DNA of 64,000 bases from Eledone cirrhosa (taxonomy: Eukaryota). The stretch covers positions 6,236 to 70,235 of the forward strand of contig CAXHJY010000528.1 of the NCBI GenBank assembly GCA_964016885.1, read 5' to 3'. The translations under genes were made by a program, and so were the position numbers. Positions within the stretch are counted from its first letter, which is position 1, and the number at the start of each line of letters is the position of its first letter. The notes beneath the pieces are model-generated. The model did not search any database. It had not been told where the DNA came from and worked only from the letters and a program-made list of their open reading frames with translations. Below are positions 1,432 through 54,837 of this stretch, in pieces.

Positions 1432-5247
<3,816 letters not shown>

Positions 5248-6135: not shown

Positions 6136-6420
6136 TAATTCTTTATAATTATCTCCAAATTATTTGTTGAGCAAAAATTTGCCAGTTCTACTGCTATGGT
6201 TCATGGTAGTAGTCAGGCTCCTGTCTTATTAGCACCCCACTCCTCACTGATTAACCTCAGTGTCACGTGATTGATTCTTTTGAATTTGCCACCGACCATG
6301 TAGGCAGTGATTTTTTCAATGTCCTGGATTTAGTCCCCGCTCGCTTTTTTCCATCCACTGAATTATTTTTGTATAAGTTCCCTGTGTCCACGCATTGCCT
6401 GGGAACTTAGCTGAGAATAG

Positions 6421-10937: not shown

Positions 10938-11150
10938 TAAAATATTGTTAAACTTTCGGAGGGTCATGCTGCCCATAAAATACACATCCAACTTCAATTT
11001 ATTACAAATTTCGGGTTGGTTGGTTCAATAACCGGATGGTTGTTTATTTATTGTCAAAAGTGTCACACATTTTGTGACCTCTTCAGTGACTGGTTTGTTA
11101 ATTTGTGTCTCATTTGTTCTCTCCTACACAGTCATGTTTTTGTGTGTTCA
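10938..11150 (-). mobile_element. Old diverged pseudo-LTR fragment related to the 49-53 kb PLE
   Basis: TATTGTTAAACTTTCGGAGGGTCATG..GGTTGGTTGGTTC..GTGACCTCTTCAGTGACTGG is colinear with 49487-49692; the GAAA half of the ribozyme is lost. Confidence 0.75.
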
Positions 11151-49383: not shown

Positions 49384-50198
49384 TATATATATAGATATAT
49401 ATATATATATATATAAATATATATATATATTTCGTTTCTGAATTTGTTTAGCAAGATTCTTTATCTGAAATCGTGTGTTGAAACCGATATTGTTATACTT
49501 TGGGAGGGTCATGTTGCCAATAAGAAACACACGCACCAGTTGCTTTCACTTCAATTTAATTTAATATATATTTATAAATTTACAAATTTATAAATTTCTG
49601 GTTGGTTGGTTGGTTCCACAACCAGATAGTTGTTTATATATATATAGTCATAGTTCTTTCGTCACACACTCTGTGACCTCTTCAGTGACTGGGGATTTCT
49701 TTCTTCGTTTCTGTGCCTTTCCTTTCTTCTATCCTACGCCATTTTGTTTGTGTGTGGGTTGCGTGCTCAGTTTGCGCATGCGCCACATCCGGGTGTCTGT
49801 GTGTGTTTGTGTTCATTTTTCTATTTTTCTATTTATATTTGTTTGTTTATTTATTTATTTATTGTTGGTTGGTTGTTTGTTCTATGTGTGTGTGTGTTTT
49901 CATTTTGTCTTGTGTGTGTTTTCATTTTGTGTGTGTTTTCAATTGTAAGTTGTTTGTTCTATGTGTGTGTGTGTTTTCATTTTGTCCTTAATTGTAAGTT
50001 GTGATGTTGCTGTTCCACTCATATTTTCTATTTAATTTTGGTTTTAATTCTTTTATGCTTACTGCCTCTGTAATTTGCCTAAACATTGCGTCTTTCTTGT
50101 GTGTGGATTCTATTTTTATTTCTATGCTCTCTAATTTACCCCTGTGTTCTATCTTAGCATGTTGGTAGAGCACAGATGATTCTTTACTATCTTGGAGG

Positions 50199-52720
50199 AA
50201 AGAGACAGGAGTAATTATGAGAGACATAGAAACAACCATGAAGCTGAGGCTGCTGCTGTTGGTGGAAATAGAAACAACACAACTAACAATAGCACTAGTA
50301 CACATAAAGCAGCAGCCTGGAACTCTCCGTTTTATAACCCCTCCGATAAATCATTCGACCTACGACGAGTCCACGCCACGACATTGCCATTTAACAAACG
50401 CACGCAGTTGCCGTCGCAGGTCGATGAACAAACAGAAGCACAATTTAGTATAGCTAAATCCGAACTTAGAAATATTATAGAACAGTATAGCAAGAAGCAT
50501 AATAGAATAGAGGCCCAGCAACTGGGAGAAGAATCTGCAAATGGCTTGCGTAAGCTCATGCAGCGCTCGCGTAATGGAGAGATAGCATGCTTTCCAACAG
50601 ACAAGTCTGGCAGAATGTCGGTTGACAGCCTGCCAAACTACATCCAGGCAATGCAACCCCACATCACTAACACAAGAGAGGTAACACCACAGGAGCATGA
50701 GGATAGAGAAAAAACCCTCAATGCCCATATGGTGATGTGGACAAATATAATGCAGCCCAACAAAAGGACTGCCAACAACTTCCAGGCCTGGAACAATGAC
50801 GTGCCGGCGTTGTATGGGCTTCGAAAAGACCATAAAACGGGCTGGGACCCTGTAGCGGGACCACCAACACGGCCAGTCTGTGGGGCTAACATTGCTAGTA
50901 ACTACAGACTGTCCTACTTCCTCTCCCTGATCATACGCCCCATCATTGAGATGTCCCCAGATGTGTGTGACAGCACGGAGGACCTCCTCAGCAGAATCGG
51001 CGCGGGTAACCGATCTGGGGACCTAACAAACTGCATAATAGGCAGTATGGATGTTGTGTCCCTGTATCCATCTATTGACGTGGATTTTGCTGTGGAGAAA
51101 TGCGTCGAAATGATCAGCGAGAGCAAGGTTGAGTTCCGTGGGATTGATACCAGTGAGCTGGGACTTCTACTTAAGCTTACCCATAGTAATAGTTACCTAG
51201 ACACTTATGACCTTAGCAACCTGTGCCCTACAAGACCAGCAAGAGGCAGACCACCTACCATTACCTCAATGGCCAAGAAAACCCACACAGATAGATGGAA
51301 CGGGTGGACCAGAGCCATACGGACACCCGAAAACCACGATGAACTGAAGAAAATGATTGCACATGCGGTAGGGGCCAGCATAAAATTAACCCTTAAGGAA
51401 CATATGTTCAAATTTAATGGTAAAACATATGCCCAAGAGGAAGGAGCAGCCATTGGTGTTAGCATTGCAGGCGACATAGCTAACTTGTTCATGGTATGGT
51501 GGGACAGTAGACTTAAACAAAAACTTAAAGAACAATTAGAAGACAGCTTAACCCTGATAATGTACTCCCGCTACGTAGATGATATAAACATCGTAGTTAA
51601 GACACCCCCACTAAAGAACAGTCAGGAACCAGAGAAAAAACACAATGGAAAGCATCCAGCAAATAGCAAACTCCATCCACCAGAGCATTAGAGTTACTAT
51701 AGACTACCCCAAGTAGACACCCCGACCATCGATTACCTGTACTAGACACAGAGCTCTGGTTAGATACTATTAACAACCAAAAACAAATCCTCCATTCCAT
51801 TATGCCAAACCCATGACTTCCAACATCTGATCCACCGAAACTCGGCCATTTCGGACCATACCAAAATCAACATACTGATTGCGGATTTGATACGGGTGAT
51901 GAGAATGTGTCCCGCATGTGCAACCCCGAAGAACTAGAGAGACACATACAACACTTCATCCACCGTATGCAGTTCTCTGGCTACAATCAGAGAGATAGAA
52001 TCAGAGTGTATAAAGGAGCCAGAACCAAATGGGAAAAAATGGTAAATAATGACATAAATGGGACCTGCCCCTTGTATAGGAGCAAATTTTGGAATAGAAT
52101 AGAAAGAACTAAGAAACAAGGCCAATAGAATAAACTCATGGTATGATAGCAATAATACCAGAGTGTAATGTTCATCAATACAACCCCTAGAGGGGCAACT
52201 AGCCCTACAAATTTAGAAGGGCCCTAAAGAAACATAATCTCAATATTAAGATAGTAGAAAGACCTGGTACCTCCGTAAAACACTTATTAGCAAGACATAC
52301 CCGTTCCAAAGACCCTCCATGTATAGATAAGAAATGTATAACCTGTAAAATAAGCCCCCATATTAACTGTAAAACTAGAAATGTAGTATATAGCATAAGA
52401 TGTACTGAAGGGACAATGTAGAAACAAAAATATAGTGTACATAGGTGAGACAGCTCGTAGTATAGGGGAACGAATAATTGAACACTGGCGAGGACCTCCA
52501 AGATAGTAAAGAATCATCTGTGCTCTACAACATGCTAAGATAGAACACAGGGGTAAATTAGAGAGCATAGAAATAAAAATAGAATCCACACACAAGAAAG
52601 ACGCAATGTTTAGGCAAATTACAGAGGCAGTAAGCATAAAAGAATTAAAACCAAAATTAAATAGAAAATATGAGTGGAACAGCAACATCACAACTTACAA
52701 TTAAGGACAAAATGAAAACA
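50199..52720 (+). pseudogene. PLE polyprotein (RT + C-terminal GIY-YIG endonuclease), 5'-truncated with several frameshifts
   Basis: PTDKSG, LYGLRKDHK..GPPTRPVCGA, GSMDVVSLYPSID, GAAIG..ANLFMVWWD, YSRYVDDIN; later frames LPVLD, RMQFSGY, KIVERPG, Cys cluster, NVVYSIRC..VYIGETARSIGERIIEH..RQITEAVSI..LNRKYEW. End coordinate approximate. Confidence 0.92.
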
Positions 52721-52995
52721 CCACACACATAGAACAAACAACTTACAATTGAAACACACACAAAATGAAAACACACACAAGACAAATGAAAACACACACA
52801 CATAGAACAAACAACCAACCAACAATAAATAAATAAATAAACAAACAATATAAATAGAAAAATAGAAAAATGAACACAACCACACACAGACACCCGGATG
52901 TGGCGCATGCGCAAACTGAGCACGCAACCCACACACAAACAAAATGGCGTAGGATAGAAGAAAGGAAAGGCACAGAAACGAAGAAAGAAATCCCC

Positions 52996-53040
52996 AGTCA
53001 CTGAAGAGGTCACAGAGTGTGTGACGAAAGAACTATGACT
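52996..53040 (+). ncRNA. Hammerhead ribozyme motif in the PLE pseudo-LTR (mirror copy ~49646-49690, minus)
   Basis: AGTCA-CTGAAGA-G-GTCACA-gagtg-TGTGAC-GAAA-GAA-CTA-TGACT: perfect 5-bp stem I, 6-bp stem II, minimal stem III. Confidence 0.82.
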
Positions 53041-53199
53041 ATATATATATAAACAACTATCTGGTTGTGGAACCAACCAACCAACCAGAAATTTATAAAT
53101 TTGTAAATTTTATAAATATATATTAAATTAAATTGAAGTGAAAGCAACTGGTGCGTGTGTTTCTTATTGGCAACATGACCCTCCAAAGTATAACAATAT

Positions 53200-54780
<1,581 letters not shown>

Positions 54781-54837
54781 TGAGATTCTACAGGACTAGA
54801 ACTGTTTCATTCATTAGAAATCATCAGGAATCCCTGA

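Follow-up and report, generated by a model that had tools for sequence, protein, structure and literature searches.

The window, a 64,000-nucleotide stretch of the Eledone cirrhosa genome (GenBank assembly GCA_964016885.1, contig CAXHJY010000528.1, forward-strand positions 6,236–70,235), contains a Penelope-like element (PLE) at positions 49431–53199. The element is a 5′-truncated, head-to-head insertion in (TA)n repeats. It was probably generated from one RNA primed at two fixed sites 60 nucleotides apart, from both sides of a target break (a probability of about 60%, judged from sequence comparisons). An inverted 5′-truncated copy with a tail on one side is the usual layout of PLEs (PMC8557442 Fig. 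2; PMC3846280; all papers are cited here from the parts of their text that were available). The layout is known and its mechanism has been called open (PMC8557442; PMC3846280); what is new is the quantitative support for coupled double priming on a single template. No published counts of end types, arm haplotypes or this group of reverse transcriptases (RTs) were found in the literature covered, which lay mostly outside subscription journals, and the family may already be catalogued in Repbase or Dfam. How PLEs form tandem and inverted insertions has been listed as an open question (PMC8557442), and the steps that follow priming are unvalidated (PMC11167929). The family sharpens this question through its two exact start sites, the use of one of each, arms from the same template, young copies in the thousands and natural open reading frames (ORFs) that are intact.

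The short inverted arm of the window copy (49487–50198, minus strand) corresponds to positions 3591–4272 of the repeat unit plus bases +1 to +26 of the next unit's ORF. Its reverse complement aligns to 52495–53199 of the long plus-strand arm with 703 matches, one mismatch and nine gap columns. The short arm alone is extended by a tail (49431–49486, minus strand) of 56 nucleotides, or 60 (49427–49486) when the ATAT blending into the flank is counted; the tail ends at an AATAT|CG site at +86. The long arm is tail-less: its 3′ untranslated region (UTR), or pseudo-long terminal repeat (pLTR; 52705–53174), is followed by the ATG and first 26 nucleotides of the next unit (53175–53199), ending at an AATAT|CG site at +26. 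The arms are joined 5′-to-5′ at 50197–50198 with a 2-nucleotide microhomology. A first-pass annotation of the window had described a long plus-strand body with an inverted copy of its 3′ end and a tail on the short arm, which the alignment confirms. It had also assigned the endonuclease C-terminus and a ribozyme to both arms. Each arm indeed carries the last ~70 ORF codons, representing the C-terminal part of the nuclease without the GIY and YIG motifs, together with the stop codon and a type I hammerhead-shaped motif, a predicted ribozyme with the architecture given in PMC4209133 (49646–49690, minus strand; 52996–53040, plus strand, predicted cut after 53035). In the short arm, these are accompanied by the 3′ UTR/pLTR and the ATG of the next unit at 49512. 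The element is flanked by (TA)n on both sides (TA-rich segment 49058–49430 on the left; 53200–54795 on the right). The earlier proposal that both sides of a (TA)n break acted as primers is supported.

Ends, tails and haplotypes of paired arms

Natural copies of the family have a unit of 4,272 nucleotides with an open frame of 1,265–1,310 amino acids, and among named proteins, one of Octopus vulgaris matches best (67%). The ORF starts within the pLTR, and the tail consists of ORF bases +27 to +86 of the following unit. Exact-pattern searches, covering the whole 3.0-Gb genome, detect 466 read-through junctions besides 12,293 ends with and 14,651 ends without the tail; with about 27,000 ends the family is very abundant. 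In 177 fetched stretches (loci designated by L-numbers) and their partners, 155 ends are positioned at +26 and 145 at +86, many of them having been selected by these patterns. The sequence at both sites is AATAT|CG, directly adjoined by (TA)n in 59 of 60 ends of young copies. By contrast, the UTR contains a 12-nucleotide TA run that extends into a long TA run in a single case, against 2,920 copies of this site. Because this run is almost never used, homology to the target alone does not set the start. Target-site duplications are unreadable within (TA)n. Partial tandems, an inverted 5′-truncated copy at the 5′ end, a tail at one end, pLTRs that include the first codons, (TA)n targets and an Asn-rich ORF insert are shared with endonuclease-bearing PLEs, whereas the 60-nucleotide tail is longer than the 30–40 nucleotides of published PLEs (PMC8557442; PMC3846280).

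The two types of ends are combined in pairs, usually one of each. The first 188 pattern-matched ends from the first 36 Mb of contig C1 include 47 head-to-head pairs within 10 kb, of which 42 are mixed, three have two tails and two are tail-less. A second, overlapping sample of C1, made up of these 47 pairs plus the first 33 among 94 ends that seemed single, was mapped by sequence and contains 58 pairs: 55 mixed, two two-tail and one tail-less. Long young copies together with the window copy provide 30 pairs, of which 27 are mixed, three two-tail and none tail-less. Independent choice of ends is expected to give about one half of mixed pairs (p = 1e-13 for 55/58 and 3e-6 for 27/30). All 15 fully resolved wrap-around pairs are mixed, and six more of the 21 have one end unresolved. 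The length of an arm is independent of whether it carries the tail. Of the 55 mixed pairs from C1, 28 have a tail-less arm that extends beyond the tailed one on the 5′ side, 15 show the reverse, and in 12 the two arms end within 20 nucleotides of each other; the median lengths are 255 nucleotides for tail-less and 239 for tailed arms (p = 0.89, with approximately eight rows shortened by alignment breaks). Therefore, the tail on the short arm of the window copy does not have the special meaning ascribed to it in the first-pass annotation.

The two arms of a pair share a haplotype. For 14 markers, each found in at least three loci, 29 young pairs have 28 concordant and two discordant marker states, and the discordant ones are single sites. 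Random re-pairing of the arms results in means of 6.3 concordant and 49.8 discordant states, with 18 and 25 in the best of 5,000 shuffles. Private variants, present in no other sampled locus, are common to both arms in 13 of the 29 pairs. In 54 of 60 pairs, the partner is closer to a given arm than the median of the other arms is, and the wrap-around set shows the same in all 28 inverted and all 23 tandem comparisons. L063 has shared variants interspersed with unshared ones, a pattern better explained by inheritance than by a conversion tract. The young copies include at least five source haplotypes, and no pair combines two of them. This sharing excludes random pairs of RNAs and independent insertions, the latter having been named in the first-pass annotation as a possible origin of the two arms.

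Proposed priming mechanism and its alternatives

In the mechanism that we propose, the nuclease would nick both strands of the (TA)n target, and each target 3′ end would pair with AUAU at one of the sites, +26 or +86. Two RT molecules, acting as a dimer, would start on the same RNA, so that each site would be used once. The RT that starts from +86 would displace the cDNA made from +26 and thereby re-copy the shared stretch; RTs of PLEs are not known to have RNase H. Both RTs would halt at random positions, and the cDNA ends would be joined by microhomology-type end joining and then filled in. Arms longer than one unit would derive from a circular or multimeric RNA, probably produced by the hammerhead.

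Besides the two fixed end points, their pairing one to one, the common haplotype and the tail-independent lengths, the family displays marks of end joining. Of 89 junctions, 45 are overlapping, seven are blunt and 37 contain inserts, many of which are copied from adjoining sequence; the overlaps are inflated by the way BLAST sets alignment ends. An exact test of 24 hand-chosen young simple junctions, 23 of them anchored, identified 13 overlaps of 1–4 nucleotides, one blunt junction and nine inserts or mismatches. The overlap is at least 2 nucleotides in seven of the 14 insert-free junctions, compared with 15% at random. Additional fragments of the element in either orientation occur at the junctions of L031, L061, L099, L118, L132 and L172, which suggests further template switches.

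An experimental parallel to double priming is the Poseidon element of Anolis carolinensis, PAc, which in vitro nicks and extends both strands, and the RT of which starts at two internal sites bracketing the tail; the protein is predicted to be a dimer (PMC11167929). As in the family described here, the tail of PAc lies between two internal starts in the first ORF codons, the starts are downstream of a hammerhead, the target is AT-rich and both strands are used; however, PAc starts without homology and belongs to a clade without a linker zinc finger (PMC11167929).

In twin priming of L1 elements, two primers are extended on one RNA, one at the poly(A) and one at a chance internal site, and the product is an inversion with junction microhomology. 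The proposed double priming shares with it two primers on one RNA, the inversion and the microhomology, and six arms that consist of the tail only (L087, L091, L095, L125, L136 and L152) look just like its products. Unlike in L1, the sites are two and fixed, and the stretch that they share is usually duplicated.

Several observations weigh against the proposed mechanism. Two-tail pairs (3/30 and 2/58) share a haplotype too, so that the restriction of each site to one use per RNA is not absolute. Strand displacement predicts shorter tailed arms, which are not observed in the C1 pairs, and wrap-around affects the tail-less arm in nine pairs and the tailed arm in six. Both sites in this family end in ATAT, in contrast to PAc, in which priming involves no homology. 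None of the markers is informative for the window pair, and shared haplotypes would be equally expected from two sibling RNAs of one source locus. Several pairs meet at natural palindromes (L068, L074, L122 and L123), and about a fifth of pairs (12/55) end within 20 nucleotides of each other, both of which would also fit a fold-back. The predicted ribozyme cut shows no significant excess of 5′ ends (three at unit positions 4134–4136 versus 1.3 expected, p = 0.15).

It is possible, although unlikely, that the arms originate from two sibling RNAs of one source locus within an asymmetric dimer that has one subunit starting at +26 and its counterpart at +86. The common haplotype would be explained if one source were active per cell or if ribonucleoproteins assembled in cis; no strand displacement would be required, and the equal arm lengths and the two-tail pairs fit. 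However, an extra reason is needed for identical subunits on separate RNAs to select different sites in about 90–95% of pairs, and the source haplotypes, of which there are at least five, are never joined in one pair.

Self-priming has been proposed for PLEs (PMC3846280). Applied to the family, a cDNA started at +86 would fold back and copy itself as far as +26, and the centre of the palindrome would later be unevenly deleted. Such a fold-back predicts the shared haplotype, one tail per pair and the scarcity of tail-less pairs (0/30 and 1/58), and near-perfect palindromes occur (L058, L034, L064, L104, L167 and L193); nevertheless, it is improbable. The tail-less arm extends further 5′ in 28 of 55 pairs, and in young tandems by more than one unit (L039, L048 and L057). 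The six tail-only arms share nothing with their partners. Each of these cases would call for a large one-sided deletion. There are also single tail-less copies without a partner (L049, L056, L066, L135 and L140). A simple fold-back is excluded for the window copy, because none on a tail-less long arm could yield a short arm with a tail, and the tail-only arms speak against it more strongly.

Even less probable is a start of both arms at +86 followed by trimming of one of them at the AT-rich +26 by the nuclease while it resolves an intermediate (PMC8557442). Trimming would yield pairs with a single tail and would account for the few with two. By contrast, both tail borders are sites of RT start in vitro, in another clade (PMC11167929), and the two sites share AATAT|CG and lie flush with (TA)n in nearly all young ends, as given above. 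A fold-back in the assembly, or a pair of independent insertions next to each other, can be dismissed for practical purposes: the window is on a small unplaced contig and its long arm has error-like indels, but more than 80 loci, most of them on chromosome-size contigs, have the same layout with differing breakpoints, asymmetric ends and shared haplotypes, which excludes an assembly artefact.

Some arms are longer than the unit, up to 1.9 units in L191 and 2.5 units in L152/L153, and the units within them are near-identical (one difference in 3,369 in L152/L153). Because copying of a linear RNA cannot lengthen an array, we infer a circular or multimeric template for these arms. Circular RNAs of this kind have been proposed (PMC4209133). 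The first-pass annotation required two RNAs or a circle for the window copy. A circle or multimer is needed for some long arms, but not for the window copy, for which one RNA with one junction, copied twice, suffices; two unrelated RNAs are ruled out, since paired arms of the family share a haplotype. The hammerhead-shaped motif is composed of helix I (AGUCA/UGACU), CUGAAGA, a 6-base-pair helix II, GAAA and a 2-base-pair helix III, and its core and helices agree with the description in PMC4209133. A search of Rfam gave no match at the gathering score in the window and none by E-value for the motif, and four close sequences show no covariation.

The 5′ ends of arms cluster at unit positions 4024–4045 (22 versus about 10 expected, often in both arms; L079, L112 and L127), possibly the start of the RNA, and smaller clusters occur near 665–700 and 417–431. 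An apparent excess of wrap-around in tail-less arms (8/9 among long copies) was dropped after the positional sample gave 9 versus 6. A collision model, in which a lapping RT halts behind a stalled one, was hinted at by L045 and L057 and failed in 21 further pairs. In L207 (310–880; C1:132,947,009–132,947,580), the tailed arm of a tailed/tail-less pair is made of about 12 tandem copies of a 46-nucleotide stretch, which corresponds to +64 to +110 of the ORF realigned at AACAA. The repeat spans sequence downstream of the tail end and so the template ran past +86; the array may reflect telomerase-like re-copying, a tiny circle or later growth of a minisatellite.

The enzyme and its relatives

The long arm of the window copy contains a 5′-truncated ORF (50197–52704, plus strand) that begins at unit position 1296 and encodes the RT, thumb, linker and nuclease. 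Landmarks of the RT are DKSG at 50600, motif A at 51050, motif B at 51443 and YVDD at 51572. The CX4CxxC-X7-C linker and the C-terminal GIY-YIG nuclease with CCHH residues occupy 52320–52704. The annotation as a PLE with an RT and a GIY-YIG nuclease holds: in natural copies, both are in a single 1,266-residue ORF, with the RT at residues 567–950 and the nuclease at 1160–1260, and the pLTRs are tandem and inverted with an optional tail, as defines PLEs. The nuclease has the CCHH residues in C-x4-C between VVY and YIG, INEH and YQH. Pfam RVT_1 and GIY-YIG matches are both below the cut-off, and a Pfam search of the full ORF gave nothing useful. The predicted structure of the RT and nuclease has a pLDDT of 88.5. 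Its best structural matches are telomerases (Foldseek E = 5e-8; VIA Z = 14.2, root-mean-square deviation (rmsd) 4.8, 378 residues aligned), and the nuclease model resembles I-TevI (Z = 10.2, rmsd 2.1, 88 aligned). A sequence search of the Protein Data Bank gave weak matches to bacterial RTs only, and the ESM Atlas generic RT clusters only.

The distance between RT motifs A and B (51050–51457) is 131 residues, which is about 70 residues above that of canonical PLEs, and the additional sequence is at the position of the insertion in the fingers domain (IFD; compare Fig. S1 of PMC8557442). Among 268 related proteins, both motifs are readable in 168, all of which have A-to-B distances of 120–164 residues. 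The same measure gives 59–63 residues in Nematis-like and Poseidon-like proteins, and 61–63 in the Nematis-like ones. By a visual count in Fig. S1 of PMC8557442, the distance is about 60–63 residues in Penelope, Neptune and Nematis, 87 in one Naiad and 118 in human telomerase RT (TERT). The IFD has been assigned to PLEs with N-terminal nucleases, some Coprina and TERTs (PMC8557442), and two rotifer families have a short Cys-rich insert at this place of the RT (PMC3846280).

The relatives are mostly metagenomic, the named sources including octopus and sea cucumber, and form one group on a long stem branch (SH-aLRT support 98, and 95 and 56 with the insertion removed). The group is sister to Nematis-like rows in one of three trees, the one without the Hydra-like row, is placed elsewhere or is unresolved in the other two, and is never nested; the comparison rows came from the flanks and from a homology search and were labelled by motif, with no named references. 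A search of the genome with RVT_1 provided no usable PLE outgroups. The best match outside the family is a Nematis-like element of the same genome. The family has the C-terminal nuclease, CCHH residues and short CX4CxxC-X7-C linker of Nematis (Fig. S2 of PMC8557442), but differs from it in the A-to-B distance (131 versus about 63 residues), where Nematis lacks an IFD, in DKSG instead of DKG, in a GG[AP]IG motif B and in the long stem.

The first-pass annotation had likened the RT and linker to Naiad. The family has in common with Naiad/Chlamys the insertion at the IFD position, the (TA)n targets and the linker cysteines. However, Naiads have an N-terminal nuclease, DKA, no canonical hammerhead and an IFD of about 20 residues, whereas the family has DKSG, a hammerhead motif, an insertion of about 70 residues and a C-terminal nuclease (PMC8557442 for the Naiad features), and the position of the nuclease shows that it is not a Naiad. 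Other clades that were considered do not fit. Hydra has no CCHH, DKT, a CxCX5C linker and no IFD, and Hydra-like rows are apart in the tree. Penelope/Poseidon has no zinc-finger linker and no IFD; a linker is present here, with the long A-to-B interval. Neptune has a linker spacer of about 25–30 residues, compared with seven here (Fig. S2 of PMC8557442), and no IFD. The RT insertion thus fits no described PLE clade consulted, and the group is a candidate new RT lineage. The available part of PMC5718144 contains nothing on a clade of this kind, and a 2026 preprint (bioRxiv 10.64898/2026.07.22.740005) retains eight PLE clades.

Telomerase RTs are alike in being the best structural matches and in the size of the A-to-B interval (about 118 residues in human TERT, Fig. 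S1 of PMC8557442), but they differ from the family, which carries a GIY-YIG nuclease; the insertion is likened to the IFD of TERT by size and position. RTs of PLEs are the closest relatives of telomerase, and therefore a lineage with a C-terminal nuclease and a telomerase-sized fingers insertion bears on the origin and role of this domain. More tentatively, the family may belong to an undescribed, widespread marine clade of PLEs with these two features, in which a dimer would copy one ribozyme-made circular RNA twice from two fixed sites, roll past the unit junction (arms of up to 2.5 units) and sometimes re-copy a short stretch many times, in the manner of telomerase, as in L207.

The window copy and neighbouring elements

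The single window copy is an ordinary member of an unusually informative family. It had been annotated as autonomous, but its body lacks the first 1,295 of the 4,272 nucleotides of the unit, which represent about 430 codons of the 1,266-residue ORF. Since the N-terminal third is missing, the copy is not autonomous. The long arm has 14 one-base coding indels, all within 51635–52528, of which 13 are the gain or loss of a copy of the neighbouring base. By contrast, coding indels are absent from 35 of the 39 other young arms, a set that includes the reference, and the short arm of the window copy has no variants relative to the family. The frameshifts are most likely consensus errors of the small contig. 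The differences between the arms, which had been regarded as an argument against an artefact, lose that value, because the indels look error-like and the short arm is free of variants. Contigs from four sequencing runs include no piece that spans the window locus.

Natural copies have an Asn/Thr/His-rich low-complexity insert of variable length at ORF residues ~250–390 (L044:5880–6310), which resembles the N-rich inserts of rotifer Penelopes (PMC3846280). In L032, the flanks beyond the TA runs mirror each other (ATGTACATGCGT and its complement), and the target may therefore have been a palindrome. Nematis-like (L205:4281–6139), Neptune-like (L147, L162, L172 and L181) and Hydra-like (L061 and L177) PLEs occur in the same (TA)n neighbourhoods, and at least four PLE lineages coexist in the genome. 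A diverged relative of the pLTR, about 70% alike and with a hammerhead that is devoid of the GAAA core, is located at 10942–11146 of the window on the minus strand.

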